A stretch of DNA of 64,000 bases from Planctomycetota bacterium (GCA_044222185.1 JBGANV010000013.1:10480-74479); one strand, 5' to 3'. Counted from the stretch's first letter, positions 12,470 to 30,411 are shown. Made by a program: numbers and translations. Notes: generated from the sequence alone by a model not told the origin.

Positions 12470-12807
12470 TTTTCTTCTCCGTCGTGATGGTGCTCGTGAT
12501 GCTCGTGGGCTGGGCGAGACTCGGGTGGCCGCGTCTCGGCGTTCCCGGCCTCGCGCCGCGATTCGGCAGCACGCGGAGCTGCTCCGTGCGCATGATGCGC
12601 GCCCACGCCAGGCGCTGATTCGGGATGCGAGATCATCGCGGGTACAGCCTCGATCGCGAGTGTTGCGGACCGCGCCGGACGGGGAGCCTCGTCGGCATCG
12701 ACGGATGCGGGGTGATCGCGACCGGGATCCGGCATCGGCGGAGCGATCGAGCATCCAAACGACAAGACGAGTGCCCCCGTGAGGGCGACGTAGTTCTTGC
12801 GAGTCAT
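12466..12807 (-). CDS. Small His-rich lipoprotein
   Basis: Lipobox LSFGC, DHPAS, HEHHEHHH tail. AAGGAG RBS. Confidence 0.7.
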   Translation of the reverse strand: MTRKNYVALTGALVLSFGCSIAPPMPDPGRDHPASVDADEAPRPARSATLAIEAVPAMISHPESAPGVGAHHAHGAAPRAAESRREAGNAETRPPESRPAHEHHEHHHDGEEK

Positions 12808-12870
12808 GCCCTTCTCCTTCCGTAGCGACGCCGCCCGCGGGGAACGCCGGCGGCGCTGTGGACTCACCGA

Positions 12871-13572
12871 TCACTTCTTCGTGTCGGACTGGTCGTGGTG
12901 CTCTTGATGGTGGCCGTGATCGCCGTGGCCATCGCCGGAATGGTGATCGGCCGACCGGCTCTCGGGCTTCGACTCCGCGGCCTTCGAGACCGACTCCTTC
13001 GCCTTCTTCAGGGTTTCAGCCGGCACCTTCTCGGCATCCTGAACGCACGTCGACGCCGAGAGATGGACGATCTCGTCTCCGATCACGATGAAGGCATTCT
13101 TGACGACCGGCTTCCCGGAGATCGGGCACGTGGTGTTTCCCACATCCTTCAGCTTTGGGTTCAGCGCCTTCGCAAGAACGACCTGGGCGTCATCCTGCGC
13201 CGGCTTCACGCAGTCCTTGCAGCAGAGGTTGATCTCATACCCCTGGAGCTTGACCGTCGGCGAGCCTGCTTCGATCGCATCTCCGCTGACGGGGCACACC
13301 GTGTTCTTCGCCTGCGTCGTCTTCGGGTACGCGGCCTTGTAGGTGCCTTCGGGATCCTGCCGGACCTTCTTGTTGCAGGAGGCACAGCAGAGGTAGACGC
13401 GCCCGTAGATCGTGTCGACGAAGACCTTCGTTGAGGCTGGTTTGCCCATGACCGGGCAGTTGACGTTCGGATACGTCGGAACGCTCGTCTTCGGATTCGA
13501 AGCCGAGTCTTGCGCGAAGGCGATCGTTCCGATCACCACGAGCACACCGAGTGAGGCATTGAAACGGATCAT
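12871..13572 (-). CDS. Secreted CPxxG-repeat (YHS/TRASH-like) metal-binding protein, copy B
   Basis: CPVMG...CCASC, CPVSG...CCKDC, CPISG, His-rich tail. 233 aa like copy A when started at ATG 13572. Confidence 0.8.
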   Translation of the reverse strand: MIRFNASLGVLVVIGTIAFAQDSASNPKTSVPTYPNVNCPVMGKPASTKVFVDTIYGRVYLCCASCNKKVRQDPEGTYKAAYPKTTQAKNTVCPVSGDAIEAGSPTVKLQGYEINLCCKDCVKPAQDDAQVVLAKALNPKLKDVGNTTCPISGKPVVKNAFIVIGDEIVHLSASTCVQDAEKVPAETLKKAKESVSKAAESKPESRSADHHSGDGHGDHGHHQEHHDQSDTKK

Positions 13573-13774
13573 GTTGGTCCTTTGTCTTGGTGATGAAGAG
13601 TGAATTTCTGCGGCTCCGCGCCGGAAGAGGTCGCACGCGGAATTGAGGATGTCGGCCATGGCGGCGTCCAACGACGGACGTCGAGACCACGACAGAGATC
13701 GAAATCGACGGGCCGGATCAGTCCAGGGCTGCGCCTTGCGACGCAACCAGACCGGCCGTCTTTCGCCGCAAGGT

Positions 13775-14167
13775 CTAAATCACCAACGGACCCGAACGTT
13801 GCTTCGGTGGTGAGAAGTGGGGTGTCGGAGCAAGCGCATCGCCGACGTCGATGGTCTTGGAACGCGCCAGGAAGTCCATCATCGCCACAGGAATCACTGC
13901 GGGCGAGACGGGATGGTCAAGTCCTGCGGCCGGCGGTGTGGAGTCAGTTTCGTGCGCAGTGTTGAACGTGATGCACCGACCGCCGGCGACGGAGAGCATG
14001 TTCGCGAGCTGCCTTCCGACTGGGTTTGGCGCCGCCGGTTTGGTCTCGTGCTCGCGATTCGACGATTTCGTATGGCGGCAGAAGCAGATCGTGAGGGAAA
14101 CTCCGTCTGGAACCACGAGAAGTGGCATCAACGCGACGAGGAAGGCCTTCAGCCGGGGCAGTCCCAT
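13775..14167 (-). CDS. Small leader-type ORF (hydrophobic N-terminus, CFC, Pro-containing C-terminus), copy B
   Basis: ..SLTICFC.. and C-terminal FSPPKQRSGPLVI. First gene of the minus-strand operon. Confidence 0.55.
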   Translation of the reverse strand: MGLPRLKAFLVALMPLLVVPDGVSLTICFCRHTKSSNREHETKPAAPNPVGRQLANMLSVAGGRCITFNTAHETDSTPPAAGLDHPVSPAVIPVAMMDFLARSKTIDVGDALAPTPHFSPPKQRSGPLVI

Positions 14168-14452
14168 GACTCGCAGCTTAATACGATTCTCGTGAGCGGG
14201 TCAACGAGGAGAGCTTGCAGTCTTCAGCGCTCTGTCCCGCGTCGGTGTCCGGCCATCACCTCGACGTTCGCCAACCCTGTTGCTCGCTTCGACTTGGCTC
14301 GATCGAAGCAACTGGGGAGGCCAGCAGGGCCCACCGCGGACGCGCACACCACGAACGACAGTGGCTCGGAGCGATGTAGGTTGAATCTTGAACCTCCGAT
14401 GTGAACCTCATCGCGTCGCAGAATTCCTCGTCGCGGCCCGGAGGACTCGGCC

Positions 14453-14806
14453 ATGAATCGCCAACCCACGCGCTCCCTGGTACCTCGCCTGCTTGCCGTC
14501 GCGGCGCTCGCGATGGTCACGGGCTTTGTGACAAGTTGTCGCTCCGATGACGTCGGAGATCACGGCGACCATGGCCCACCATCAGTCATCGCGTGCTCCA
14601 AGTGCTACGAGCAGGTCGTCGTCCAGCGCTCCCGGATCGGGGGCCGAAACCCCCGCGGACGAGGGTCGCAGGTGGTCTTCAAGCATCACTGCGCCGACTG
14701 CAACGCCGAGATGACGATCACGGACGAAGACGGCGTCGCGACGATGAGATGTCCGACGTGCGCCCCAGAAGGTGTCGCGTGTGATCGCTGCGTCGGGCCG
14801 CGTTAA
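14453..14806 (+). CDS. Small lipoprotein with four CxxC motifs
   Basis: GGAGG RBS, lipobox VTSC, DHGDH, CSKC/CADC/CPTC/CDRC. Confidence 0.65.
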   Translation: MNRQPTRSLVPRLLAVAALAMVTGFVTSCRSDDVGDHGDHGPPSVIACSKCYEQVVVQRSRIGGRNPRGRGSQVVFKHHCADCNAEMTITDEDGVATMRCPTCAPEGVACDRCVGPR

Positions 14807-14924
14807 TTCCCTCAATTCTGGTGCGGAGTCAGCGCGATGGGTCCGATTTGGGGCCGCCTCGGACCCATCCGGATGACCCGTCCGGCACTTTCACCGGCGG
14901 TATTTCACACCGTCCGCGGATCGG

Positions 14925-15578
14925 TCACCCGCAACACTCGTCGCCTCTCCACGCCTCTCGTCCTTCGCGGACGATGAGCACGGCGACGAGGATCGCCGTC
15001 ACGGGATCAGCCCACCACCAACCGAAGATGCCGTTGAGCGCCACTCCGAGCAGGGTCGCCAGGGAAAGCCACCAACACGCGGTCGTCTGCCCCGCGTCGG
15101 CTTGCATTGCACGGCTTCCAAGCTCTCGACCGACTTGACGCTTCGCGCGAGCGAGCCGAACCATGACGACCAGCGAAACCGCCGTGAGCGCGATACCAAC
15201 CGGGCTGAACTCCGGACGCTCTCTGAGACGGAGCGTGTTGACGGCGTCGAACACGACGTATGCGGCGAGGAGAAAGAGCGAGAGCGCAACCAAGCGACGC
15301 GCGCGATGCTCGATGGCTTCGACGTGCGCTGCCGAGCCCACACCTGATCGCTCGGTTCGCAATCGCCAGATCATGATCAGCCCCGACGCGGACTCGACGA
15401 AGCTGTCGACGCCGAATCCGAAGAGCACGATCGATCGCGCAAGGACGGCCGCCGTGATGGCCACTCCACCTTCAACGAGGTTCCAACCGACTGTCAGGTA
15501 CTCGAGACGGATTGCGCGACGGAGAATGTCCCGCCGTCCACCGGCCAGAGCAGAATCACGATTGGAGTCCATCGGCAA
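14925..15578 (-). CDS. Short cation diffusion facilitator (CDF) transporter lacking cytosolic C-terminal domain
   Basis: LEYLTVGWNLVEG, FGVDSFVE, ADA.QT..C, GWWWADP. Six TM segments. Confidence 0.88.
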   Translation of the reverse strand: MPMDSNRDSALAGGRRDILRRAIRLEYLTVGWNLVEGGVAITAAVLARSIVLFGFGVDSFVESASGLIMIWRLRTERSGVGSAAHVEAIEHRARRLVALSLFLLAAYVVFDAVNTLRLRERPEFSPVGIALTAVSLVVMVRLARAKRQVGRELGSRAMQADAGQTTACWWLSLATLLGVALNGIFGWWWADPVTAILVAVLIVREGREAWRGDECCG

Positions 15579-15860: not shown

Positions 15861-16171
15861 CTTCACCGATACATCACCGATTTCAAGCGATCGAGAGCGA
15901 GGCTGTGGTCGCGCGCTGACCGGAACGGCCGACCACGCTTTGAGATGCGACCGCCGCGGCGGTGAGCGAGCCTCGCATCGCCTCCTCGGTCGGTGAAGTT
16001 CGCGACTCCCGCCGCGACGGCGCGAACCCCGCCTGTTCCTCGGCGAATCGGGGCAAGATCCTCCGCTCGACGCCGACGCCGTGAACTTGCCCGCTTGCGA
16101 CCGCCGGTGAAGCATCGGTGAACATCATCTGCGCTCTGAGGGCGCTCCGACTTCACCGCCAGACCTCACCG
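15861..16171. repeat. Cluster of CGGTGA(A) motifs including a 19-bp imperfect inverted repeat
   Basis: CTTCACCGATACATCACCG (15861-79) is the inverse of CGGTGAAGCATCGGTGAAC (16105-23), 3 mismatches. Further motifs at 15960, 15991, 16152, 16165. Confidence 0.65.
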
Positions 16172-16264
16172 GGTATGATCTGCGTCGCTCCGGGCAACCT
16201 CCAAGGCGACGTGTGTCGCACATCTCCAAGCCGCGCCCGGCCACCACTGTCTTGGAGACTCTCC

Positions 16265-17548
16265 ATGTCGACTCCCGCGACTCTCGCGATCCGTCGCCGT
16301 CCGATTGCGTCCCTCGCCCCCGACCCGGCCAATGCCCGCAAGCACGGCGAGCAGAACCTCGATGCCATCACGGCGTCGCTTCGCCGCTTCGGACAGGCCG
16401 AACCACTCGTCATCCAGGCCGGCACGGGCCGTGTGATCGCCGGCCACGGGCGGCTTCTGGCCATGAAGCAGCTCGGCTGGACCGACTGCGACGTCGTCGA
16501 ACTGGACGTGGACGATCTGAAGGCGACCGCCCTCGGCATTGCCCTCAACCGCACGGCGGAGCTGGCCGAGTGGGATGAATCAGTCCTCGCGAAGCTCCTC
16601 GACGAGCTGCGCGACCAGGACGCACTCGACGGCGTCGGCTTCGCGCCCGGAGACATCGACGCCCTGCTCGCCGAACTTGACGCCCAGGCCGGGCCAGCGG
16701 AGCTGTCCGACGAGGGCCCCGATGAACCGCCTGAGGACCCCGTATCGCGCCGCGGCGACCTGTGGGTGCTCGGTGATCATCGCCTGCTCTGCGGCGACTC
16801 CACCAATGCCGACGACGTCGCGCGCCTGATGGCCGGCGACAAGGCGGCCCTCATCGCGACCGACCCGCCCTACCTCGTCGACTACACCGGCGAACGGCCG
16901 AACGACTCCGGGAAGGATTGGAGCGCCACCTACCGCGAGATCGACATCAAGGACGCGGACGCGTTCTTCCGATCCGTGTTCACGAACGTGAAGGCGGTCG
17001 GCGCACCGAACGCCGCGATCTACTGCTGGCACGCCCACAAACGCTCCGGCGACATCCAGCGCATCTGGCGCGACCTCGGCATCCTCGACCACCAGCAGAT
17101 CGTGTGGGTGAAGCCGACCGCGGTGTTCGGCCGGGTCTATTGGCACTTCCGCCACGAGCCGTGCATGATGGGTTGGATCCAGGGATCGAAACCCGAGCAT
17201 GACGGCGTTCACGAACACGACTCCGTCTGGGAGGTCGACTGGGACGGGAAGGCTCGCCTCGTGGGGTCCGAGCACCCTACTTCGAAGCCCGTCGAGCTGT
17301 TCGCCCGCCCCATGCGCAAGCACACGAAGCCGGGCCAAATCGTGTTCGAGCCGTTCTCGGGCTCCGGCTCCCAGATCATCGCGGCCGAGCGTGAGCGCCG
17401 TCGATGCCGCGCGATGGAGATCAGCCCCGCGTTCGTCGACGTGGCGATTCGTCGCTGGGAGAAGGCAACGGGCAAGTCCGCCACGCTCGAGGACACGGGG
17501 CAGTCGTTCGCGGTCGTGTCCGAGATCCGGGAGGCGTCCCATGCATAG
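16265..17548 (+). CDS. ParB-N domain fused to N6/N4 DNA methyltransferase (phage type)
   Basis: NARKH, IAGHGRL, GD.W.LGDHRLLCGDST, TDPPY, HPTSKPVEL, EPFSGSGS. GGAG RBS. Confidence 0.92.
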   Translation: MSTPATLAIRRRPIASLAPDPANARKHGEQNLDAITASLRRFGQAEPLVIQAGTGRVIAGHGRLLAMKQLGWTDCDVVELDVDDLKATALGIALNRTAELAEWDESVLAKLLDELRDQDALDGVGFAPGDIDALLAELDAQAGPAELSDEGPDEPPEDPVSRRGDLWVLGDHRLLCGDSTNADDVARLMAGDKAALIATDPPYLVDYTGERPNDSGKDWSATYREIDIKDADAFFRSVFTNVKAVGAPNAAIYCWHAHKRSGDIQRIWRDLGILDHQQIVWVKPTAVFGRVYWHFRHEPCMMGWIQGSKPEHDGVHEHDSVWEVDWDGKARLVGSEHPTSKPVELFARPMRKHTKPGQIVFEPFSGSGSQIIAAERERRRCRAMEISPAFVDVAIRRWEKATGKSATLEDTGQSFAVVSEIREASHA

Positions 17549-17645
17549 ATGTCTCCTGCGTCGTCCTGACCCGCTCGCTCCATGGTTCATGTTCTGGTTC
17601 CTCATCGCGGCGCTATGCCTCGCCTACGGGATCGCGAAGCGGTGA
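17541..17645 (+). CDS. Tiny single-TM peptide
   Basis: MHRCLLRRPDPLAPWFMFWFLIAALCLAYGIAKR. GGAGG RBS; overlaps both neighbours. Confidence 0.4.
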   Translation: MHRCLLRRPDPLAPWFMFWFLIAALCLAYGIAKR

Positions 17646-18148
17646 AGCGGAAGCTCCCATCGAGCGCGTTCGACGCGTACGTCAGCCTGGGCGCGGCCCG
17701 CAGCTACGAGGCCGTCGCCCGGCAGTTCGGCGTCACGAAGCGCGCCGTGACGGCGTGCGCTGAACGCGAGGACTGGCAGGGTCGACTCGCGGACGCCCAC
17801 GAGAAGGCCCGGGTCGAGAGCGATCGCAAGGCCGCGGACGAACTCGTCGCCATGAACGCGCGGCACGATGGGATCGCTGGCGCGATCGAGACCGCCGTCG
17901 TGAAGTTGATGCGGGAGCTGGGCAACGAAGCCACGATGGCCGACCTGCGAATGGCCGCCCTAACGATCGAGGCGACACAGCGGGTGAGACGGACTTCGCG
18001 CGGGCTCGATGACGCGGCACGTCTCGCGCAGGCGGCGGAGCCGGCCGCTCCCCTTCCGCCCCGGATCATCGAGTGGCGGCTGATGACGCCCGAGCGGATC
18101 GCGGAGGAGCGTGCCAAGCACCGGGTGCCCGCCGAACGGTCCGGGTAG
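17642..18148 (+). CDS. Terminase-small-subunit-like HTH protein #1
   Basis: GTG start. AFDAYVSLGAARSYEAVARQFGVT..W.. HTH followed by coiled coil. Lies downstream of ParB-MTase, as phage terS genes often do. Confidence 0.6.
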   Translation: MKRKLPSSAFDAYVSLGAARSYEAVARQFGVTKRAVTACAEREDWQGRLADAHEKARVESDRKAADELVAMNARHDGIAGAIETAVVKLMRELGNEATMADLRMAALTIEATQRVRRTSRGLDDAARLAQAAEPAAPLPPRIIEWRLMTPERIAEERAKHRVPAERSG

Positions 18149-18179
18149 GCCAACCGCCTCAGTCAGTTCGCGGCCGGAA

Positions 18180-18318
18180 CTTCTTCGTCGTCGCCTCCCC
18201 CCTACAGGAGACGCCTAACGGCGAAGAAGCCCCCCTCCGGGCGTCCTCAACTCACCGCCGCCCTGACCCGCTCCCGATCCACCCGCGCAACGACCAGCGT
18301 CGAGGTGATCGATCGGTG
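18180..18318 (-). pseudogene. Relic copy of tyrosine-recombinase 3' end plus downstream hairpin
   Basis: 18247-18318 encodes HRSITSTLVVARVDRERVRAAVS*, versus HRSITSTLVYARVDRERVRAAVS* at 19255-19326. The hairpin is duplicated as well. Confidence 0.85.
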
Positions 18319-18332
18319 GTGAATCGCGGCGT

Positions 18333-19118
18333 CTACGCGCCCTTCTCAAAGCACTCCCACCCGTCCGTTTCATCAACTACGTCGTCGATCAGCTTGTAGG
18401 TGTACTCGTTCGGCGTGCCTGGAGCACTGGAAAAGGCCGCCTCGATGCTTGGAACGGAGAACCGTTGCGCGTCCAGGAGCCTCGCCTGACACATCCCGAC
18501 CGCGCGGTCACGATGCTCGACGAGGTGGAACTCAACCGCGGTGGTGACGAACTCATTCCACACATCAGACTTGGTCAATCGGATCGTGGAGATGGCCCGC
18601 GCGAGATACCCGCTGAGTTGTGCCGTCGTGATCCTTCCGACCGCCGCCAGCGTCGCGAGCGTACGAAGACAGACTGCGCGCGATGCGCCGCGAAGGCCCT
18701 CCTGCTCGGCAAACGCCATCAGGCCGTCTGCGTCGCCGTCAAAGGTCGAGGCGAGCACGGAATGCAGGGAATAGTCGCCCAGCCGGTCGGTGAGGCAGTA
18801 GAGCGTCTCCGGGTCGAACCGAAGGAAGTCGAGAGCCATGGTGTGCGCGCGCACCTCCCGGAACTTGGCGAGGAGGACCAGCGCGAGGCCGGCGCCCTGG
18901 AACTCCCCGTCCGAGACGAACGGACGCCAATCCGCAAGGACGGCGCGGAGGGTCGCGAGGAGGGAACGAACAAGCTGCTCGCCCATCGCTTCCGCCCGTC
19001 GAAGCTGCGCGACTGGGCGAACACCCCCGCACCACGCGATCTCCTTCCAGAGCGCGGTGGCCGCGCGCTGTGGGATGACGGGCAGGTTTCGAGACGAGGT
19101 GGACGATCGGCGTGCCAA
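18333..19118 (-). CDS. DUF1186-family-like protein (no SEC-C tail); start uncertain (TTG 19118)
   Basis: LLAKFRE..A, LAST.DGD, R...L..LA.L...G.I and YKLIDDVVDE..GWECF match my recollection of DUF1186. Confidence 0.6.
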   Translation of the reverse strand: MARRSSTSSRNLPVIPQRAATALWKEIAWCGGVRPVAQLRRAEAMGEQLVRSLLATLRAVLADWRPFVSDGEFQGAGLALVLLAKFREVRAHTMALDFLRFDPETLYCLTDRLGDYSLHSVLASTFDGDADGLMAFAEQEGLRGASRAVCLRTLATLAAVGRITTAQLSGYLARAISTIRLTKSDVWNEFVTTAVEFHLVEHRDRAVGMCQARLLDAQRFSVPSIEAAFSSAPGTPNEYTYKLIDDVVDETDGWECFEKGA

Positions 19119-19179
19119 TGGCCTCTCCGGTGGCCGGCGATCATACTCCGACTCACCGAAGCCGAATGACGGCTGAGTT

Positions 19180-19225
19180 CTTCTTCGTCGCTTCCCCCTA
19201 TAGGAGAGGGGCGACGGCGAAGAAG
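19180..19225. repeat. ~46-bp hairpin CTTCTTCG...CCTATAGG...CGAAGAAG (one of four related copies)
   Basis: Related copies at 18180-18229, 27621-27672 and 27711-27759. Confidence 0.8.
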
Positions 19226-19254
19226 TCCCCCCACAGACTTCAGGCGCGGGAACC

Positions 19255-20130
19255 TCAGCTGACCGCCGCCCTGACCCGCTCCCGATCGACCCGCGCGTAG
19301 ACGAGCGTGCTCGTGATCGACCGATGCCGAAGGGCAGCCTGGACGACCGCGATGTCCCCCGTCCGGCGAAGCAACGCGGTCGCGAACGTGTGGCGACAGC
19401 TGTGCGGCGAGGCCGGTCGGTTGACTCCGGCCTTCGCGAGCCACTCGCAGAACCGACGGTGCACGTGGCGCGTCGTGATCCGCTCGCTGCCGCGACCTGC
19501 AAACAGCGGCCCGGTCGTGCGGTTCCCGAGGTACTCGCGGAGCAGGTCCCGAGTCGCGGCCGGCATGAACACGACCTCGGGCCTGCTGCCCTTGGCCGAC
19601 CGGATCTGGATCTCGCAACGGTCCAGGTCGAGGTCCTCGACGTCGAGCGCGACGGCGGATCCGACCCGTATCCCGGTCGTGAGGAGGACCGTGACGAGGA
19701 CGCGGTCCCGCCGCCCCTCGGGGTTGGTGTCAGCTGCCAGCGCGGCAAGGATGCGCTGCTGGTCGTCCTCCGCGATCGTCTTCGGCGGCGCCACTCCGCA
19801 CAGTGCCCGTCGGACCAGCCGCGCTGGGTTCTGCGCGATCGCCCCTGCCTCGTGCAGGTAGCGGAAGAACACGCGGAGCGAGGTCCGCATGGCGTTCATG
19901 GAGAGCGGACACTTGCTCCCGCCACCCGCTCTCGCCCGCGCCTCGGGGGCGGCCAGGAAGCGCGCGACGGACTCGTGGCCGATCGTCGCAATGTCGTCCG
20001 GCTGGTCGGTGGATGCGAGCCACCGCCGGAACGCACCAACGTGGCGGCGGTACTGGCCGATCGTGTGCGGCGATCGGCCATCGGCATCGAGTTGGACAAG
20101 GAACCGATCGAGGGCGTCTTGGAGGTTCAT
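19255..20130 (-). CDS. XerC/XerD-like tyrosine recombinase
   Basis: SAM-like N-domain, TGIRVGS (R), AKG (K), HSCRH (HxxR), LRH..(H), LVY (Y). GGAG-less but ATG in good context. Confidence 0.92.
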   Translation of the reverse strand: MNLQDALDRFLVQLDADGRSPHTIGQYRRHVGAFRRWLASTDQPDDIATIGHESVARFLAAPEARARAGGGSKCPLSMNAMRTSLRVFFRYLHEAGAIAQNPARLVRRALCGVAPPKTIAEDDQQRILAALAADTNPEGRRDRVLVTVLLTTGIRVGSAVALDVEDLDLDRCEIQIRSAKGSRPEVVFMPAATRDLLREYLGNRTTGPLFAGRGSERITTRHVHRRFCEWLAKAGVNRPASPHSCRHTFATALLRRTGDIAVVQAALRHRSITSTLVYARVDRERVRAAVS

Positions 20131-20187
20131 CTTGGAGGTGCCCTGAACGAGAACGGGCGGGCCTCGCGGACCCGCCCAGGGATCGAA

Positions 20188-20778
20188 TCACCCCGCTGTC
20201 GCGTACGGCAGCGACACGATCACCCCGGCCTTCTGAGCCCATGCCAGCGCGAGCCGAAGTGCGCGGCAGGTCTTCAAGACCGTGGGCATGGCCTTGCCCT
20301 TGCCGCTTTTGGTCTTCGTGACGATCTCGGATGCCTCGTAGGCGGCGATCTCCTCACTCGTGATCGCGCCTGCGACCCGCGAGGCGTCGAAGAACTTCAT
20401 GGCGAGCGCGAGGTCGCCCTCGTAGCTCTTCACGGTCGCGGGCGTCTTGCCGCGAGCACGCATGTCCGAGAGCCAGCCATCGGCGATGGCCTTCAGCGTG
20501 GCGGGGCCGTCCACCCCAATCGCCGCGTGCGGCAGCTCAGGCGGCGTGCCGAATGCGGCCTCAGGCGCGTGGTTCTCCTCAAGCGTGGCGTTCGCGAGCG
20601 GGCCGGCCTCGGCGCCCTTGACCCATGCCGGGGCTTCTGCGACCGGCGTCGCGGCCTTCTTCGCTCGCGGCTTCAACAGCTTCTGGACAACCGCACCGTC
20701 GACCGGCGTGGCATCTGTCGGGGGCGCTTTCTTGGCCTTCGTGGTGCGGGCAGAACTCGATCCGTTTGCGTTCTTCAT
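20188..20778 (-). CDS. Stand-alone integrase core-binding (SAM-like) domain protein with Lys/Ala-rich N-terminus
   Basis: WLSDMRARGKTPATVKSYEGDL...PTV.....LRLALAWAQKAGVI parallels the N-domain of the adjacent recombinase. No catalytic domain. Confidence 0.65.
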   Translation of the reverse strand: MKNANGSSSARTTKAKKAPPTDATPVDGAVVQKLLKPRAKKAATPVAEAPAWVKGAEAGPLANATLEENHAPEAAFGTPPELPHAAIGVDGPATLKAIADGWLSDMRARGKTPATVKSYEGDLALAMKFFDASRVAGAITSEEIAAYEASEIVTKTKSGKGKAMPTVLKTCRALRLALAWAQKAGVIVSLPYATAG

Positions 20779-20878
20779 CGGGGTCTCCATCGCGGCGCAG
20801 AATCGCGTCCGCGTGCGACACATGGAGCCGCCTTTCGCCGATCAGATCCAGCAGATTCTGGGCGCTGAAAGTGCGTAG

Positions 20879-21379
20879 CTACCCGGTGGTAGCGGTCCCT
20901 CCGAATTTGGGTGGCATCCAGGGCGAAAGCTCGGCACGTCGCTGTTCCGCCGCGATCCGCGCGTCCTCAGCATCCGCCTCCTCCATGAGGCGCGCGATCG
21001 TGGAGATGGTGACCTGTCCGTCGGGCCCCTTGCGCAGCGTCCGCTCCGACTCCATGACGACGGTCAACGCCCGCATCAGCGGGGCCGCAGCGGAGGTCGG
21101 CGCGGTCCGCAACGCATCGAGCGCCTTGCGCTGGAGCGCCTGCAGGACCTTCAGGTGGCGCTCGTTCATCTGGTCGAGCGTCTCGACGGCGCGCTTGTCG
21201 GCATTCTCGCGGGCCTGCCGTTCGCGGTCAGCGATGCGCTCCTGCCAACGTTCCTTCGCGGCGCGGGCAGCCACGGCCTTCTTCGACGTCGCGTACTGCT
21301 GCGAGACCCGGGTGTAGCTGCGACCGACGCCGAGGCTGAAGTAATACTCGAACGCGTCCGACGGGAGGCGGCGGGTCAT
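20879..21379 (-). CDS. Terminase-small-subunit-like HTH protein #2 (paralog of #1)
   Basis: RRLPSDAFEYYFSLGVGRSY..V aligns with RKLPSSAFDAYVSLGAARSY..V. W and MNERH/MNARH are shared. Confidence 0.65.
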   Translation of the reverse strand: MTRRLPSDAFEYYFSLGVGRSYTRVSQQYATSKKAVAARAAKERWQERIADRERQARENADKRAVETLDQMNERHLKVLQALQRKALDALRTAPTSAAAPLMRALTVVMESERTLRKGPDGQVTISTIARLMEEADAEDARIAAEQRRAELSPWMPPKFGGTATTG

Positions 21380-21550
21380 GGAAGGCCCTCCGCGAGGGAT
21401 GGCGCGCGGCGGCGGGGCCGGTGATGCGCAGGCTGAGCGGGCATGGGATCTCCAAGTCGTGGGGGTCGCCCGGGTCGTTAACTTGGAGGTGTGCGCGACG
21501 GTCGCGCCTTGGAGGTGACCCGAATGGGCTGGCGCGCATGATACGTCGCC

Positions 21551-22012
21551 GGGGTACGGAAGGTGTACGCGAGGTTACCGCATTGAACTGGCGGCGGGAC
21601 TGTGAGTTACGACGGGGGCCCGTCCACGTCGGAGTCGACCGCCGCGCCTCCGCTCGGGCGCGACCCCCTCGAAACGCCGGGGAATCCGATCGGGTGGGGG
21701 CAGGCCCCTGCGCGTCGACGGACTCCGGCGACCGTTCGGACGCTCGAGCCGCGAGCTGTAACCCGTGGTGGGGACGAGCCCTCCAGCGGTTGGACGATCC
21801 GCCGCTCGTCCAAATCACGGCCGAGAATCGTACACCCTCCGGTCACCTCGCGTATCCCATGCGTCCGCGACTCTGGGAAATGGGACACGGCGACCGCGCC
21901 GTCAGATTCTGCTGCCGACAGACGGTCGCCTCGCGCGGCACGGAAGGCACCGGCCGCCGCTCGCTCTCGCGGTCGGTTGCTTCGGCCGCGTACCCACCTC
22001 CGGTCACTCGCG
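21551..22012. repeat. 11-bp-phased repeat blocks in inverted orientation
   Basis: GGGGTACGGAA/GGTGTACGCGA/GGTTACCGCAT (21551-83). Reverse strand GGGATACGCGA/GGTGACCGGAG/GGTGTACGATT (21826-58). Third related block at 21988-22012. Confidence 0.65.
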
Positions 22013-22074
22013 AGAATCCGCGCGAGATGTCGCGGCAGTTCCTCGCGCGATAGTGACGGGTGATCGCGAGGCGC

Positions 22075-22587
22075 TTACGCCGATGGCGATTGCGGTTGCG
22101 CGGATGACTCCGGACGCTCGGCAATGACCAGCCGAACGATGCGGGACGCCGCAGGCATCGCGGCCAGGTTCGGCGTCGCCTCCGCGCTCGACGGGACATC
22201 CGCGTCCGCTGCCGTTCGCCGGATTCGTTGAGCCGACTCGACCGCGAGCGCCAGGGCTCGGATGTCACGTGCGCTCAGCCCGCGACCACCGCCCGACGAC
22301 GCGCTCCGCAGGTAGCGCAGGATCATGGCTTCGATGGTCTCACCGAGTTGGTCGTGCCGGGCGTTCAGCTTCGCAACGTGCCCCCGGCTGCGCTCCCGAT
22401 CCGCGAACTCCACCTTCGCGTCGATCAGGCGCTTCAGGTCCTCCCATGCGCCCTCGCGGCGCCACTCTCGGACCGTGTTCGTCCTCGTCACGCCACACGC
22501 CTGCGCGATCGCCTCGTCCGTCATCTTGCCGTCAAGCCATAGGTCCCGTGCACGATCGCGCACGGTTGCGGGATAGGGCTCAGTCAT
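22075..22587 (-). CDS. Terminase-small-subunit-like HTH protein #3
   Basis: RARDLWLDG..TDEAIAQACGV...TVREWRREGAW HTH. LNARHD and ALAVESAQRIRR are shared with #1. AAGGAG RBS. Confidence 0.6.
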   Translation of the reverse strand: MTEPYPATVRDRARDLWLDGKMTDEAIAQACGVTRTNTVREWRREGAWEDLKRLIDAKVEFADRERSRGHVAKLNARHDQLGETIEAMILRYLRSASSGGGRGLSARDIRALALAVESAQRIRRTAADADVPSSAEATPNLAAMPAASRIVRLVIAERPESSAQPQSPSA

Positions 22588-22723
22588 GGTTGTTCCCCGC
22601 TCCTTGCGGGTGACCCCGATCGTAGGAGGGGGGTGTCGCGATCTGCGCTTCCCGCCCACGGCAGTTGCGCGGCGGCCGGCGTCGCACCCCAGGCCGTGGA
22701 ACCTGTGCGCGGCGGCCCAACCC

Positions 22724-23158
22724 TCAGGTGGGCAGCGCCGGGACCCCGAGTGGCGGGGGCACGGTCGCTCGCATCTGCGCGAGTGCTTCCCTCACCGACT
22801 GCGCGAACTCCTGAGGGTCCTGACGCTCGACCGGCTCGATACGGACCTTCCGCCCCCATCGGTCCGGGCACTTCCGCTCAAGCCGCCAGGCTGCAGCCTG
22901 CCACTGCGTCTGTGCGGCCTTCCCGATGATGAGCAGGTCGCGCAGCTCAGCTTGCGCCAGCGCCCTTTCTACTGCGTCCGAGAACTCGCGAAACCGTGTC
23001 CCGTCACCCCGCGCGCCGCGACGCAGCCATGCGTAGAGCGTGTCTTTCGAGATGCCGGCCGCAGCTGCCGCGGTCTCGATGTAGGCGCCAGCGTGGATGT
23101 ACTCGACGATCTTCGACTGGATCGCGGGTGTGAGCTTGCAGGGACGGCCGGTCAACAT
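22724..23158 (-). CDS. Terminase-small-subunit-like HTH protein #4 (different family)
   Basis: GRPCKLTP, AAAAAGISKDTLYAW, FREFSDAVERA, WQAAAWRLERK.P..WGR: pattern of phage HTH proteins found just upstream of large terminases. Confidence 0.7.
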   Translation of the reverse strand: MLTGRPCKLTPAIQSKIVEYIHAGAYIETAAAAAGISKDTLYAWLRRGARGDGTRFREFSDAVERALAQAELRDLLIIGKAAQTQWQAAAWRLERKCPDRWGRKVRIEPVERQDPQEFAQSVREALAQMRATVPPPLGVPALPT

Positions 23159-23335
23159 TCGGGTGCTCCGCGTTGAAATGTACTCGTAGGCCGAACGCTT
23201 GGTGGCGGCACCAAGCAGACCACGCCTCACGCCGTCTATCGGGGCCGCCGGACGGCCAGAACGAGACAGGTTCGGCGCGGCTGCAACCGTTACGTCTGTT
23301 TGGTGTACGATCCGCCGGCCCAAGGAGAACCCGGC

Positions 23336-24112
23336 GTGGGGCACAGCAGGCTCTCGAATCTTCCGAGAACGCGGTGGTGGAATGAAGTCGTCGAGCTAAT
23401 CGCTCAGGGCGGCTCCGTTGCTGACGTGGCTGAGAAGACCCTCGATGCTGCACTCGACGGCTTCTCAGCCGCGGCAAACGATCGAGGCGTCATCCAGGCG
23501 TGCTGGCTTCTCATGCAAGTTCCCCTGATTGCGCAGGGAGAGGACGGGCTTGAGCGGCTTGCTGAGATCGGGATCCGCCTCCCAACGGACGCGAGCCCGA
23601 CGGACCTCGCTGCTGCCCTCACGGACGCTGCCGACGAATACCATCACGTCAGCCGTTCGCGGTCAGACCTTGGGGAGATGGCCGAACTCGCCCTCGTTGA
23701 GTCGTTCCATTCCGCTCTCTGGGAGGAGAATGCCACTCTTTTTGGCCCGAGTGCGGCTGACCTGCGCGTTGCGTTGAAGAGGCTCGGCTCTCAGCGGTCA
23801 TTCCAATCGTTGACTCGAACCTTCTTCGCCAATCTCACCAAACGATTCCTCTCATACTTCCTCAGCCGGACCCTCTCGAATCATGTAGGCCCAGAGAAGC
23901 GATTCCATTCGATTAATGAGAGGCTCGCGTTCGACGAGGCCCTCGGCATTCACTGCTGGGAAGCCTCACGGATCGTCGAATCGTACGCGAGCGAATGGCG
24001 CGCCAAGATGGCGTACCACGTAGGGCACCTGAACCCCGAAGACGTGGTCGGGTTCCTGAAGAAATCGACGAAGAAGCTGGCGGCGGAGCTTGTGCGCCGC
24101 GGTGCCCCATGA
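23336..24112 (+). CDS. All-helical partner of QueC-like protein (QatB-like), N-terminus MGHSRL
   Basis: AAGGAG then GTG at 23336. Stop overlaps the QueC-like ATG. Confidence 0.6.
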   Translation: MGHSRLSNLPRTRWWNEVVELIAQGGSVADVAEKTLDAALDGFSAAANDRGVIQACWLLMQVPLIAQGEDGLERLAEIGIRLPTDASPTDLAAALTDAADEYHHVSRSRSDLGEMAELALVESFHSALWEENATLFGPSAADLRVALKRLGSQRSFQSLTRTFFANLTKRFLSYFLSRTLSNHVGPEKRFHSINERLAFDEALGIHCWEASRIVESYASEWRAKMAYHVGHLNPEDVVGFLKKSTKKLAAELVRRGAP

Positions 24113-25815
24113 CCGCGCGTCACCGAATCGTCTGCGGGGCGGTGCCATCAATCGCGGCACATGCGAGTTCCAAGCGCCTGCGCTTCGTCATGGAGGGTCG
24201 AAATGCCAACATTCGCCTCGAGATCGACGCGATTAGCGACCGTCTGGTCAAGTGCATCCCGACGAGGTTCTTAGACCTACTGGAGGTCGCATCATACGTG
24301 TTTGCCGCAGACCAAGCGTGTACGAGAGGTGGAGCCGGTGTCGACAACGTCGGCGCTCGTTGGCGACGCGACTTCGAGTTCCACATCGCTGTTCGCGACG
24401 CGGACTTCTGGAAAAGCGACGAGACATGCCGGGCACTTGAGGAGACGCTCGGCTTTCTCTCAGACGACAACTACAGTTTCGCGTTCTACCCGCTGACAGG
24501 TGAGCGGGTGGAACCAGGCTATTTTCAACTGGATGACGCAGGTCTCAGGCCTGGTGTTCCGGACTGCGTGATGCTGTTCTCCGGCGGTCTCGACTCACTC
24601 GCGGGCGCAGTCCAAGAGTCCCTCGTCGATAAGCGTCGGGCGGTGATGGTCAGCCACGTTTCAAATCCTGTCTATCGGTTGCAGCAGCGTAGGTTGATCG
24701 ACGGCCTTCGCGGCCGGGGCGCCGTTCCATTCCACGTTCCGGTCGAATTGAATACAGCGTATGCACAAGAGGACTCGCAACGGACCCGAGCATTCCTGTA
24801 CGTGTCCCTTGCGGCGGCGGTGGCAAGGGGCCTCAACATCGACACGGTGCGCTTCTACGAGAATGGCGTGACGAGCCTGAATCTACCATTCTCCGCCCAA
24901 CTCATAGGCGCCAGGGCCAGCCGGACGACTCATCCGAAGGCGCTGCGTGGATTCACGCTCCTCCTGGGCCTCGTCTCCGGGCAAAAAATGTCCGTCGAGA
25001 ACCCGTTCATATGGGAAACGAAGACGGACATCGTTCGCCGCATTGACATGGGGTCCTGTCGCGAGCTGATCGAGCATGCGATCAGTTGTAGCCACCCGCG
25101 CTTGCGCAGCAACAGCAAAACGCACTGTGGAGTATGCATGCAATGCATCGAACGGCGGTTCGCCATTTTGGCGGCTGGCCTCGATGAGGCTGATCCAGAA
25201 AGCAAGTACCGAGTCGCGCTCCTTCTCGGACCGCGGAAGGAAGGCAAAGACCGGACAATGGCGGAATCCATCGTCGCCAGAGCGCAACGCGTTGCAACAA
25301 GCTCCCGGGAGAGTTTCGTTGCGGCATTCCCCGAGGTCGCCCGGGCGCTCCGCGCCTTCGTCGGCCGGACCGAGGAAATTGTCGACCGGATCTGGGATCT
25401 CTACCGGCGAAACGCGCAAGACATCATGGGAGTCCTCTCGGATGGGCTGAAAGCGCACGCGGACGAGTTCGTTGCGAAGCAGATCGACCGCACGTGTCTG
25501 TTGATGCTCGCTGGCGGGTTCGGCGAAGATGCGAGCTTACGCGGCCGGGTGAGCAGCGCCGCGAAACTGGCAACCGCGGTGGTCGCGATAGCGGCACCGG
25601 AGAACCAAGGCGTCCCCGTCGCGGAGTTGGCGCGGCGCACGAAGATCCCGCGATCGTTCTTCTACGAGAACCCCGCAATCAATCGGTTGAGGCAGGAGCA
25701 GAAGGGGCGTGCGTTTCAGTTCCGCGCTGAGCGTTCGGAGAGCCCGTCGCGCCCGTCGCGGAACCATGGACAATCAGTCCAAGGCGACGACGCACCCGAC
25801 AGCGACGATTCCTAA
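24109..25815 (+). CDS. QueC-family PP-loop ATPase (QatC-like) with C-terminal HTH extension
   Basis: DLLEVASYVFAAD, LFSGGLDS, QRTRAFLY, ENG..SLN, TTHP, NPF...TK, SC...HCGVCMQCIERR. Confidence 0.85.
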   Translation: MTARHRIVCGAVPSIAAHASSKRLRFVMEGRNANIRLEIDAISDRLVKCIPTRFLDLLEVASYVFAADQACTRGGAGVDNVGARWRRDFEFHIAVRDADFWKSDETCRALEETLGFLSDDNYSFAFYPLTGERVEPGYFQLDDAGLRPGVPDCVMLFSGGLDSLAGAVQESLVDKRRAVMVSHVSNPVYRLQQRRLIDGLRGRGAVPFHVPVELNTAYAQEDSQRTRAFLYVSLAAAVARGLNIDTVRFYENGVTSLNLPFSAQLIGARASRTTHPKALRGFTLLLGLVSGQKMSVENPFIWETKTDIVRRIDMGSCRELIEHAISCSHPRLRSNSKTHCGVCMQCIERRFAILAAGLDEADPESKYRVALLLGPRKEGKDRTMAESIVARAQRVATSSRESFVAAFPEVARALRAFVGRTEEIVDRIWDLYRRNAQDIMGVLSDGLKAHADEFVAKQIDRTCLLMLAGGFGEDASLRGRVSSAAKLATAVVAIAAPENQGVPVAELARRTKIPRSFFYENPAINRLRQEQKGRAFQFRAERSESPSRPSRNHGQSVQGDDAPDSDDS

Positions 25816-25922
25816 GTTCAAGCGAGCCAACGGCCGCCGTATTCGTCGACCCGACAGGTAGTCAACAAGTTCGGGTCCGGTCCAGAGCCTTGGGCGTTGA
25901 TGCCCAGCTCCAAGGACCCGAG

Positions 25923-27812
25923 ATGCTCGATCCTCTGCACCTTGTCGAACTCCATCGTTCTGGCCTTTCCGACGACGCTATCGCTCGCTCCCGCATTCAC
26001 TCCGCCGACGCCGACACAGCCGCCGCCCTCGTTGGCATCCCGTGTGGCTCCGCGATGGTGATCCCATACCCGGACGCGAGGCTCGGAAACGGGTCACCTT
26101 TCTGCCGTGTGAAGCCAGACGCGCCCAAGCCGGATCGCAACGGGAAGACGGCGAAGTACCTCTCGCCGACCCGCGCGTTGAATCCCGAGGGCAATCGGCT
26201 CTACTTCCCCCCGAATCTCGACTCCGACGTTCTCGCGGACGCGTCGACCCCGATCCTGATCACAGAGGGTGAGAAGAAGGCTCTCAAGGCGACGCAAGAG
26301 GGCGTGCCGTGCCTCGGACTCGCCGGCGTCTACGCCTGGAAGAAGCGCGACGAGGACGACCAGTCCCAACCGATCGCCGACCTCTACAAGGTGCAGTGGC
26401 GCGGACGCCTTGTCGGCATCGTCTTCGACTCCGACGCGGCGTTCAACGACCTCGTGAAGGCCGCCGAGAAGGCCCTCCGAGATGAGTTGCGCCGCCGCGG
26501 CGCCCGGGTCTACATCATTCGGCTCCCCGAGCCGACCTTCGAGGAAGCCAAGGTCTACGGCTCGAAACTCGGCCTTGACGACTTCCTGTGTGCCCGCGGG
26601 GCGGATGCGTTCGGCGAACTCATGGTGGCGTCGGCTGAGACGCTCCCGCTGGGCGCGAAGTCTGCTCGAGTCCTCATGGCGGAGGCCGACCCTGAGGAAC
26701 CGGAGCTGATCCAGGGGCTTTGGCCCGAGGCCGGCTGCGGCTTCTTCGCTGGCGAGCCGAAGACGAAGAAGTCGTTCCTTTCCCTGGCCCTCGCGTACTG
26801 CGTCGCGACCGGCACGCCGTTTCTTGGACGAGCCGTACGCAAGGGCACAGTCGTCATCGTTGACGAAGAGAACGACCGACGCGAGCTGAAGAAGCGCATG
26901 CGGCGCGTCGCCGCGGGCCTGGGGGTTCCTGCCGACCTGGACGCGATCATCGTGGCAGCACCATCCGTCCTCAAGCTCGACAACCCAGACGCGATGAAGG
27001 AGCTTAGGGCGCTCCTCGATGAAGTGAAGCCCGCCCTGGTCGTTCTCGACCCACTCGTCCGCCTGCACCAGGGTGACGAGAACGAGGCGATGACCGTTGC
27101 GCCGATGCTCGCCGACGTGCGACGGGCGTCACGACACTTTCGGTGCTCCGTCATCGTTGTGCACCACCTGAGGAAGAAGGCCGAGGGGACGAAGGCCAGC
27201 CATGGGCAACGGATGCGCGGCAGCAGCGACCTGCACGGTTGGCTCGACGCCGCGGTCTACTTCGAGAAAGGGTCCGACGATCTCATCAAGTTGACGTTCG
27301 AGACCCGCTACTGCGTTCCGCCCGACCCGATGTACGTGCAGCTCACGGACGGGGCGGACTCCGTGCGCTGGGAGCGAGTCGAGAAGTCGGACGAGGCGGG
27401 CGAGGAAGCTGAGCCGCTCGGGGCGATCCGACGGGTCCTTGAGGTGGCGGAGGTGCCGATCACTCGCGAGGAGCTTCGGATTGCGACCGGGCTCAGCGAC
27501 AAGAGGCTCAAGGCTGGGATCACGAGCCTCGTGGCGGCCAATCTCGCACTCATCGGGTCGCGCCCCACAGGCGGCAAGCCCGCGACGACCTTCTGGTTGA
27601 GGAGCCGCGGAGCGCCGGCCACTTATTCGCCTTCCGGCTCCCCCTTAGAGGGGGGAACGACGGCGAAGAAGTCAGATGCATCGCCGGCAGATCCGTCGGA
27701 GGCCGGCGAACTTCTTCGCCGTCCTTCACCCCCTAAGGACGATCGCGGCGACGAAGAAGGGGTGCCCCCCGCAGACGCGACCGCGGACGAGGCGATGGGG
27801 GGTGATCCATGA
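25923..27812 (+). CDS. Primase (DUF3854/TOPRIM-like) fused to AAA_25 RepA-type helicase with C-terminal wHTH
   Basis: KYLSP, ITEGEKKA, IVFDSD, GLDDFL, Walker A GEPKTKKS, Walker B VVLDP, VHHLRK, RGSS. Confidence 0.88.
   Translation: MLDPLHLVELHRSGLSDDAIARSRIHSADADTAAALVGIPCGSAMVIPYPDARLGNGSPFCRVKPDAPKPDRNGKTAKYLSPTRALNPEGNRLYFPPNLDSDVLADASTPILITEGEKKALKATQEGVPCLGLAGVYAWKKRDEDDQSQPIADLYKVQWRGRLVGIVFDSDAAFNDLVKAAEKALRDELRRRGARVYIIRLPEPTFEEAKVYGSKLGLDDFLCARGADAFGELMVASAETLPLGAKSARVLMAEADPEEPELIQGLWPEAGCGFFAGEPKTKKSFLSLALAYCVATGTPFLGRAVRKGTVVIVDEENDRRELKKRMRRVAAGLGVPADLDAIIVAAPSVLKLDNPDAMKELRALLDEVKPALVVLDPLVRLHQGDENEAMTVAPMLADVRRASRHFRCSVIVVHHLRKKAEGTKASHGQRMRGSSDLHGWLDAAVYFEKGSDDLIKLTFETRYCVPPDPMYVQLTDGADSVRWERVEKSDEAGEEAEPLGAIRRVLEVAEVPITREELRIATGLSDKRLKAGITSLVAANLALIGSRPTGGKPATTFWLRSRGAPATYSPSGSPLEGGTTAKKSDASPADPSEAGELLRRPSPPKDDRGDEEGVPPADATADEAMGGDP
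27621..27759. repeat. Two tandem hairpins in the 3' end of the primase-helicase gene (candidate origin)
   Basis: ACTTATTCGCC..CCCCCTTAGAGGGGG..GGCGAAGAAGT and CTTCTTCG..CCCCCTAAGG..CGAAGAAG. Confidence 0.7.
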
Positions 27813-27943
27813 TCGCCATCGAGATCGTCCCCTGCGTGGCAACGGGCTGCGACGGACTCATGCGCCCTGCCGAGGGGCAGTTGCTCGTCTGTTCGTGGTG
27901 CGGCTGCACGGTCGTCACCGCCGTCCCGGGAGGTACGCGATGA
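27809..27943 (+). CDS. 44-aa zinc-ribbon-like peptide
   Basis: MIAIEIVPCVATGCDGLM...VCSWCGC. ATGA overlaps at both ends. Confidence 0.55.
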   Translation: MIAIEIVPCVATGCDGLMRPAEGQLLVCSWCGCTVVTAVPGGTR

Positions 27944-28251
27944 CTGCGCCGTGCCCGCGATGTGGGGCACAGGCGGCGGCGCTTCCCATCCACGATGTCG
28001 AGATCCTGCCGGCCTTCGATCCAAACCATCGGACGACGGGGCTCATCGGTTGGGCGCGGATCCTCATCGGCCCGTTCCGGATCGATGGACTCGCCGTAAG
28101 GCGGCGCCTCGACGGGCGGTGGATCGTGACGTGGCCGGCGCGGCGAGATGCAGCGGGGCGCATGCATCCGTCGGTCATCCCCATCGACGACGAGGTTCGG
28201 CGCCGGGTCGAGGATGTGGTGCTCACCGCCGCACGAAAGGCGGTCCCATGA
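27940..28251 (+). CDS. SpoVG-like nucleic-acid-binding protein
   Basis: LIGWARILIG.FRIDGLAVRR...IVTWPARRDAAG..H..VIPI...R..VE..VL follows the SpoVG pattern. GGAGG RBS. Confidence 0.7.
   Translation: MTAPCPRCGAQAAALPIHDVEILPAFDPNHRTTGLIGWARILIGPFRIDGLAVRRRLDGRWIVTWPARRDAAGRMHPSVIPIDDEVRRRVEDVVLTAARKAVP

Positions 28252-28477: not shown

Positions 28478-28481
<4 letters not shown>
28248..28481 (+). CDS. Small hypothetical protein coupled to the recombinase (possible directionality factor)
   Basis: ATGA overlaps on both sides. Function inferred from position only. Confidence 0.45.

Positions 28482-30411
<1,930 letters not shown>

Follow-up and report, generated by a model that had tools for sequence, protein, structure and literature searches.

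A 64,000-nucleotide stretch of a Planctomycetota genome from wastewater (GCA_044222185.1, JBGANV010000013.1:10480-74479) contains an island of ~14.4 kb (about 16.0-30.4 kb), ending at a tRNA-Met gene, that carries four intact genes resembling the small subunit of phage terminase (TerS) and no detectable gene for the large subunit (TerL). This stretch, referred to below as the window, has a high GC content (about 66%) and comes from contig C3 of a host genome of 7.08 Mb in 16 contigs that is 93.8% complete. Our preferred reading, which we hold with about even confidence, is that this is a satellite-like island without a motor of its own, whose TerS recruits a TerL supplied in trans, the C-terminal tail of one of the four proteins (#1) being suited to the TerL of a head-gene cluster on contig C1 of the same genome. 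We favor a helper motor because the island has no detectable motor gene of its own.

As the initial annotation of the window had proposed, four small-terminase-like genes are present as intact open reading frames (ORFs): #1 (17642-18148, plus strand, 168 aa), #2 (20879-21379, minus strand, 166 aa), #3 (22075-22587, minus strand, 170 aa) and #4 (22724-23158, minus strand, 144 aa). Third-position GC in the four ORFs as listed is 0.77-0.87, which is coding-like for the region. None of the four proteins scored above a Pfam family's own cut-off. Searches of PHROGs assigned #1 and #2 to phrog_6299, ‘terminase small subunit’ (2.6e-8 and 2.3e-13, respectively), and #4 to phrog_4102, also ‘terminase small subunit’ (1.3e-37); the best match of #3 was phrog_4151, ‘DNA binding protein’ (4.1e-7), together with weak matches to the helix-turn-helix (HTH) of TerS proteins. 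The relationships that had been read from the sequence at first sight also hold: #1 and #2 are clear paralogs (34% identity, E 8e-20), #3 shares with #1 the (M/L)NARHD and A.QR.RR motifs (MNARHD/LNARHD and QRxRR in an alignment with 32% identity, E 7e-10), #4 belongs to a separate family, and the C-terminal tails differ in the family alignments. Pairwise comparison of #3 with #2 and with #4 gave no significant similarity. #3 can be aligned with the #1/#2 family along its whole length, and in a maximum-likelihood tree of 36 members it clusters with #1 and two relatives, P0001 and P0002 (support 100/96), away from the other 32 rows including #2, a placement that is uncertain given the long branch of #3. 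The likeness of #3 to characterised TerS proteins comes solely through its similarity to #1. On sequence grounds, the four are thus small terminases of two families, #1, #2 and #3 being of the Pfam-less phrog_6299 type and #4 of the separate Sf6 type.

The four proteins have the same general layout, an N-terminal HTH followed by a helical-hairpin core, with differing C-terminal tails. An AlphaFold2 (AF2) model of #1 built from 36 family sequences (mean predicted local distance difference test, pLDDT, 86.2) has a three-helix HTH at residues 9-42 (pLDDT above 89), which is the predicted DNA-binding domain, a long helical hairpin at 45-119 (helices 45-96 and 99-119), a disordered linker and a C-terminal helix at 150-159; this predicted architecture is the TerS layout. 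The corresponding model of #4 (pLDDT 84.6) has a three-helix HTH at residues 11-49 and a helical hairpin at 54-101. The #4 family profile matched solved Sf6 gp1 in the PDB over nearly the entire chain (E 2.8e-4), outscored by a short designed HTH repeat protein that aligned over 30 residues. Sf6 gp1 (PDB 3hef, 4dzj) resembles #4 in both profile and predicted fold, although the two are ~20% identical and the C-terminal 35 residues of #4 are unrelated. A PDB sequence search with the #1 family gave no relevant match, and a wide structural search (VIA-align) with #1, which returned just generic helical hairpins (Z up to 7.2), was set aside.

We identify #1, #2 and #4 as TerS because their PHROG matches are accompanied by synteny of their relatives with methyltransferase and TerL genes. 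On its contigs C6 and C14 the host genome has two more genes of the #1/#2 family, each located between a ParB_N-N6_N4 methyltransferase and a TerL (Terminase_6N/6C), with a small protein (X) and a Xer-like tyrosine recombinase after TerL; #2 is 43% and 41% identical to these TerL-adjacent paralogs, respectively. The initial annotation had proposed examining whether homologs adjoin terL, and they do so in both of these paralogs, in 16 of 31 family genes of other Planctomycetota (TerL at most 700 nt downstream) and in all three distinct types of viral contig that carry #4 relatives. Of the remaining 15 genes in other Planctomycetota, 14 have no adjacent TerL and one is interrupted where its contig stops, and 25 of the 31 have a methyltransferase upstream; in this count L012 and L029, which are a single place, were taken once, and L046 and L048 are identical proteins on two contigs of one genome. 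The core module of the family runs from a ParB-methyltransferase through TerS, TerL (none, one or two copies) and the SAM-like protein X to the Xer-like recombinase. None of the four window genes has a TerL immediately 3' of it, and forms of the module without an adjacent TerL recur in other genomes, as the 14 genes above indicate. Five of these (L020, L021, L022, L024 and L025) form a TerL-less clade with a support of 100/100, in which the tail is replaced by a helical-looking C-terminal domain of ~90 residues (..RILIERVLGKIR..PEDAQKAAA..) and the genes still stand after the methyltransferase and before X.

A family profile detected members in 21 of 401 sampled Planctomycetota genomes, the host genome included, and matched 4223 cluster representatives at E<=1e-3, 773 of them at E<=1e-10, among 1.84 billion. 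Relatives of #4 (51-58% identity) on viral contigs have TerL directly 3' in three of three distinct contig types (L083, L085 and L084; L086 and L087 were left out of this count). In Planctomycetota, #4 relatives occur in 10 of 401 genomes; an N6_N4 methyltransferase precedes 8 of the 14 loci, and no TerL was seen in their short flanks. Among cultured phages, tblastn with #2 gave no match at E<=1e-3 and #4 had three weak matches (35-36% identity), to phages of methanogens. On viral contigs the #1/#2 family was represented by two weak loci only (24-33% identity), one of which, L077, showed no packaging context among the three ORFs scanned.

Copy number varies within the module. The C6 sister island has two tandem TerL paralogs (L006 10622-13170) that are 73% identical and both Terminase_6N/6C, and a tandem pair like it occurs in another genome (L050). 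On another Planctomycetota contig (L014, 3909-4860), two tandem TerS-family genes, both ending in the canonical tail described below, precede the Xer-like recombinase; some 4-6 kb further along come a split methyltransferase and a TerL.

No TerL could be detected in the window. With the island TerLs as queries, tblastn returned no match to the window at E<=1e-3 and, in its gaps, none better than E 1; a search of the gaps for remnants of TerL or methyltransferase gave no score better than E 0.03. Virion genes were likewise not found: no Pfam head, portal or tail family was detected in the window island and its two sister islands, the sole exception among the sister islands being a sub-threshold match to Phage_tube_2 (E 0.004) on the C14 X protein; the 162 ORFs scanned from 12 extended loci of other genomes likewise contained no Pfam family of capsid, portal or tail proteins; and 46 Pfam-less neighbours had no PHROG head or tail match at E<=1e-5. 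What the sister islands and these 12 loci carry are primases or helicases (D5, DUF3987, DUF3854, NrS-1-type and CHC2/Toprim), DUF2924, HTH/ImmA pairs and serine or tyrosine integrases. The sister elements look like capsid-less terminase islands, and the window copy like a TerL-less version of them.

The C-terminal tails provide a link to possible partners. TerL-adjacent family members end in ..EEI(I/V)RREY(E/D)RW(M/L) followed by acidic residues, and a strict form of this motif, E[YMH].[RQDET][WF][ML], is present in 12 of 13 TerL-adjacent genes versus 4 of 14 without an adjacent TerL (three TerL-adjacent genes without a start call were left out, and the rows are related, so that the count is not a statistical test). 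We regard the canonical tail as the likely TerL-docking part because the motif is enriched in TerL-adjacent genes, in agreement with lambda, where the C-terminal portion of TerS binds TerL (PMC6739421). None of #1-#4 carries the canonical tail. The C-terminal sequence of #1 is PPRIIEWRLMTPERI. That of #2 is ..AELSPWMPPKFGGTATTG, and its last 18 residues are unchanged in a homolog (P0055) that is 78% identical overall, which suggests that the #2 tail is under constraint. The W-containing motif is absent from #3.

The tail of #1 matches that of a TerS encoded elsewhere in the host genome. A cluster on contig C1 (L075, about 1,090,500-1,104,900) encodes a ParB-like protein, a putative TerS of 142 aa, a TerL (phrog_2), a portal protein (phrog_145), a scaffold or protease, a major head protein (phrog_1357, 1.1e-41) and a tail-like gene, and is a candidate helper prophage or gene-transfer-agent-like cluster. 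A relative of the C1 TerS carries Pfam Sf6_terminase, so that the C1 protein is putatively of the Sf6 type, and outside the tail BLASTP found no relation between it and #1. Its tail, PTRVIHWRLMTKPP, contains RVIHWRLMT, and #1 contains RIIEWRLMT at residues 141-149 (codons at 18062-18088, plus strand), the proposed TerL-docking peptide. The expression R[IVT]I.WR[LV][MI] matches only these two proteins in all six frames of the genome (14.17 M codons). The motif is also kept in three relatives of #1, namely P0001 (from another sample, 95% identical), P0002 and P0175 (52% identical, with the tail PTRVIEWRLITKPPE), as well as in P0009 and P0010, which are relatives of the C1 TerS. The C1 TerL has no BLASTP similarity to the island TerLs. 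Three further TerL families (TerL_ATPase, Terminase_3 and GpA_ATPase) had no match in the genome, at its 93.8% completeness, and no TerL genes turned up beyond that of C1 and those of the islands.

Modeling of the C1 TerL (15-sequence alignment) in complex with #1 residues 118-168 gave a median score of 0.67 (runs of 0.67, 0.64 and 0.69), whereas the controls scored 0.00 in three of three cases. Among solved complexes 58 of 80 attain the mark of the #1 tail, and among mismatched pairs 2 of 110 do so. Contacts agreed by at least 65% between runs, and the pLDDT of the partner was at least 57. The predicted interface joins #1 residues 138 and 140-149, which comprise the motif itself, to C1 TerL residues 6-14, 17, 20-21 and 45-55, and the model thus supports docking of the #1 tail on the N-terminus of the C1 TerL. 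The initial annotation had suggested modeling such a complex with a TerL from the host and had envisaged a set of adaptors docking onto different helper TerLs; the TerS identity of the genes stands, and docking on a helper TerL finds support for #1, through the tail match and the model, but not for #2-#4, for which no partner was found.

Other parts of the island are also satellite-like. At one end, a large serine recombinase (28478-30379, plus strand; Resolvase, Recombinase and Zn_ribbon_recom), likely the island integrase, abuts the tRNA-Met that forms the right border (30339-30411, minus strand; ARAGORN; Rfam tRNA, 64 bits). A replication module is present in the form of a DUF3854 and AAA_25 primase/helicase-like protein (25890-27812, plus strand; AAA_25 6.3e-37, DUF3854 1.9e-16, and PHROG primase/helicase families). 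No copy of the tRNA end was found at the left border with blastn-short; serine integrases need no att repeat. No gene of the window was recognised as a master repressor; some sister loci (L049, L050) contain HTH_3/ImmA pairs.

We infer binding, packaging and mobility of the island. The island TerS proteins would recognise island DNA and recruit a TerL supplied in trans, and island DNA would be packaged into helper capsids, as with the TerS of Staphylococcus aureus pathogenicity islands (SaPIs). For #1 the predicted partner is the TerL of the C1 head-gene cluster, reached via RIIEWRLMT, which would copy the tail of the cluster's own TerS. The four genes themselves are most likely a mosaic of module fragments from related islands. 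In a bolder version, which we offer tentatively and think rather unlikely, the capsid-less terminase islands would form a phylum-wide family in which the C-terminal peptide of TerS serves as a ‘plug’ that can be exchanged to suit a particular TerL, and the island, having dropped its motor, would keep a panel of four adaptors, one of them bearing the plug of the resident phage's TerS, with which it is packaged by, or jams, several helpers. If so, satellites in general could change helpers by exchanging tails between unrelated TerS families.

Several observations weigh against the helper-TerL proposal. The Foldseek comparison with TerS structures, which had been put forward at the outset, was clear for #4, whose top six PDB rows are all Sf6 gp1 (E 0.025-0.18; next row, E 2.1), but weak for #1, where the best PDB row, again Sf6 gp1, had a non-significant E of 0.56 (in BFVD, the best row was ‘Terminase small subunit’ at E 8.6e-3). 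The regular expression that singled out #1 and the C1 TerS was post hoc, having been drafted after both tails had been seen. At the DNA level the two tails have no more than a 14-nt core in common, so that recent transfer or copying is indistinguishable from convergence. The complex of #1 with TerL is itself a prediction, the lack of a partner for #2, #3 and #4 noted above counts in the same direction, and the C1 cluster may be a defective prophage or gene-transfer-agent-like cluster. #3 is a long-branch orphan, with no relative closer than #1 in 400 other sampled genomes of the phylum (its identity to P0175 is 39% across residues 25-126). No excision or circle junction was present in the contigs from four metagenome runs; the only joints had 20-23-nt sides, apart from one small 97-nt skip, and none is trustworthy as an excision. 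Finally, the locus is rearranged, with one module inverted, the 3' end of the recombinase gene duplicated and 695 nt left empty, as described next, and this is as compatible with decay as with function.

These last features bring in the possibility that the locus is a mosaic wreck, in which recombination, nested insertion and deletion among related islands left TerS-like genes behind, TerL was lost and the remaining genes are drifting with no coordinated function; we consider this rather unlikely. The locus does seem to be a mosaic, pieced together from at least three module fragments and not designed as an array, because the two halves of the canonical module are inverted relative to each other, the #4-#3 pair is separate from both and a DUF1186 gene is bracketed by a repeat. 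In one orientation stand #1 and the first gene of the conserved module, a ParB_N and N6_N4 methyltransferase (16118-17548, plus strand; N6_N4_Mtase 6.9e-16, ParB_N 7e-4, the latter below cut-off, phrog_498 3e-123 and PADLOC MTase_II 3.6e-93) whose counterparts in the C6 and C14 islands share 44% identity with it. In the other stand #2, X and the Xer-like recombinase. X (20188-20823, minus strand) has a C-terminal half like the integrase core-binding (SAM-like) domain (phrog_1 integrase, 6.8e-6, residues 88-204), which is 69% identical to the protein after TerL in the C14 island, and has no Pfam match; the recombinase (19255-20130, minus strand, 291 aa; Phage_integrase 1.4e-31, Phage_int_SAM_1 5.1e-11) is 61% and 49% identical to those of the C6 and C14 islands, respectively. 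The #4-#3 pair has neither a methyltransferase nor a TerL. A second copy of the recombinase 3' end and its downstream hairpin lies at 18190-18337 (minus strand) and repeats ~19174-19345; it was detected as repeat families D1 (93 nt, 77%) and D7 and by tblastn of recombinase residues 263-291 (86% identity).

Between these two copies lies the DUF1186 gene (18333-19169, minus strand; Pfam DUF1186 6.1e-16), flanked by what is in effect a direct repeat of about 100-150 nt (18190-18337 and 19174-19345, 77-80% identical), and the arrangement suggests that a DUF1186 cassette entered through recombination where the Xer-like gene ends. The interval at 21380-22074 (695 nt) contains no convincing gene, repeat array or RNA family. 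An invertible shufflon between #1 and #2 was considered and rejected, as no long inverted repeats link them. In the best-holding metagenome run, summed contig depth at 16170-17437 and 19974-21241 is 2-3x that of the rest of the island, and contig breaks fall at the methyltransferase, TerS, X and recombinase genes, a pattern to be expected of a community with several related islands.

For the wreck, then, speak the inversion, the duplicated recombinase end around the DUF1186 gene, the geneless stretch and missing TerL, the orphan status of #3 and the 2-3x depth in the bins of the methyltransferase and of X/#2, an indication of several related copies able to recombine. Nevertheless, all four ORFs are intact with coding-like third-position GC, the homologs of #1 at 95% and 52% identity keep the tail motif, the last 18 residues of #2 are unchanged in its 78% identical homolog, and TerL-less forms recur (14 of 31), including a well-supported clade with a C-terminal domain of its own.

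A role in interference or defence, in which TerS-like decoys would occupy a phage TerL or poison TerS rings and block packaging while the island itself is not packaged, we regard as improbable. The predicted docking of the tail on TerL fits a decoy as well as an adaptor, and SaPI Ppi, Rpp of phage-inducible chromosomal islands (PICIs) and Gpi of PICI-like elements (PLEs) have a comparable outcome, phage packaging being blocked. Satellite-encoded terminase inhibitors are known, as described in 10.1101/2024.04.22.590561 and PMC6739421. The island also contains a defence-related gene, which encodes a QatC-like (QueC-like) protein (23995-25815, plus strand, start codon uncertain; PADLOC QatC 4.7e-52, Pfam QueC 1.5e-7). 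A complete Qat system (QatA, QatB, QatC and QatD) is not present, QatC-like being the only PADLOC match to it among the island proteins, and this protein and an ORF of unknown kind 5' of it (23300-24112, plus strand, 270 aa; no Pfam, PHROG or PADLOC match) may be reduced or variant Qat-type defence cargo. On the other hand, the full TerS layout is kept, including the predicted DNA-binding HTH, #1 occupies the conserved methyltransferase-TerS position, and the four genes have no PADLOC match at E<=1e-3 except a stray mad1 (9e-4, #4).

It is quite improbable that the TerL-less copies are regulators or accessory factors, that is, HTH proteins controlling the Xer-like or serine recombinases or module expression with no part in packaging: in the TerL-less relatives L021, L038 and L058 the gene does lie directly before X and/or the recombinase, the best PHROG of #3 is a ‘DNA binding protein’ and the L020-L025 clade has a different C-terminal domain, but the family-wide position is upstream of TerL, the #1 tail also occurs in a phage-type TerS and is predicted to dock on TerL, and #4 is of the Sf6 type, TerL-adjacent on viral contigs.

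One proposal of the initial annotation, two phased-repeat arrays upstream of #1 and #2 as cognate sites, had to be abandoned. A repeat finder and Tandem Repeats Finder detected nothing upstream of either gene. Upstream of #2, at 21380-22075, five 7-mers occur at least three times (shuffles, mean 2.4, maximum 8), and are unphased, while no 8-mer occurs that often; upstream of #1, no 7-mer occurs at least three times at 17300-17660 or 16900-17660, two stretches taken up almost wholly by the methyltransferase gene towards its 3' end. No candidate packaging site was found either; a pac site can lack repeats.

The remaining features of the region touch the terminase genes less directly. A small ORF between the replication protein and the serine recombinase (27676-28251, plus strand) is related to a SpoVG-like gene of the C6 island (tblastn 38%, E 5e-17) and has no Pfam match of its own. 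A hairpin with arms ACTTCTTCG.CGTC / GACGGCGAAGAAGT occurs in three island copies (18177-18235, 19174-19231 and 27639-27735), each 3' of a gene, and may be a terminator or an element of the repetitive extragenic palindromic (REP) kind. The promoter scan found no promoter-like site, the terminator scan found 2 terminator-like sites versus 2.6 expected, and the tRNA was the only Rfam match. To the left of the island (9170-15578), where GC is slightly lower (0.63-0.65), lie genes for a haem-binding protein, a multicopper oxidase and a cation-efflux protein, which may represent cargo for metal resistance belonging to a larger island or to one next to it.

The phage satellites known so far come mainly from Firmicutes and Proteobacteria, and, to our knowledge, the recruitment of TerL by TerS is structurally poorly defined for most phages. 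If our proposal is right, TerS-based packaging piracy would extend to the Planctomycetota of wastewater communities, and the window would be tied to a large island family, that of the 4223 cluster representatives noted above. The nine-residue tail peptide, common to a satellite-type and a phage-type TerS of different families, would be a candidate determinant of helper choice; as it is predicted to bind the first ~20 residues of TerL, it may represent a short, transferable docking motif of use beyond this case. A full-text literature search, judged by titles and the openings of abstracts, found no published description of a Planctomycetota terminase island family.

Among the known systems close in plan are the SaPIs and PICIs that encode their own TerS (pac-type SaPIs). 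SaPIs use their own TerS with a phage TerL and are thought to package island DNA in this way, as stated in PMC6739421. Like them, the window island is ~15 kb in size, lies beside a conserved gene and has an integrase, a primase-helicase and its own TerS but no TerL. The differences are that a SaPI or PICI has one TerS whereas the window island has four TerS-like genes of two families, that its module includes a ParB-methyltransferase and a Xer-like recombinase, that it belongs to the phylum Planctomycetota, that no Stl-like repressor, capsid-size or Ppi-like gene was recognised in it, and that its sister islands carry one or two TerL genes. Satellites with both their own TerS and TerL have been described as capsid-forming PICIs (cf-PICIs) in 10.1101/2022.09.08.507074, and the C6 and C14 sister islands are alike in this respect; cf-PICIs also encode capsid, portal and connector proteins, none of which was found in the Planctomycetota islands scanned. 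A third point of comparison is offered by satellite proteins that act on the helper terminase and redirect or block packaging: according to 10.1101/2024.04.22.590561 and PMC6739421, PICI Rpp binds the DNA-binding domain of TerS and PLE Gpi inhibits TerL, and these proteins, along with PLE GpsA and GpsB, are not, as is proposed for #1, TerS homologs with a copied TerL-docking tail. Thus, while satellites with their own TerS are already known, what is new here is a TerL-less island with four TerS-like genes that belong to two families and include one with the tail of a resident phage-type TerS.

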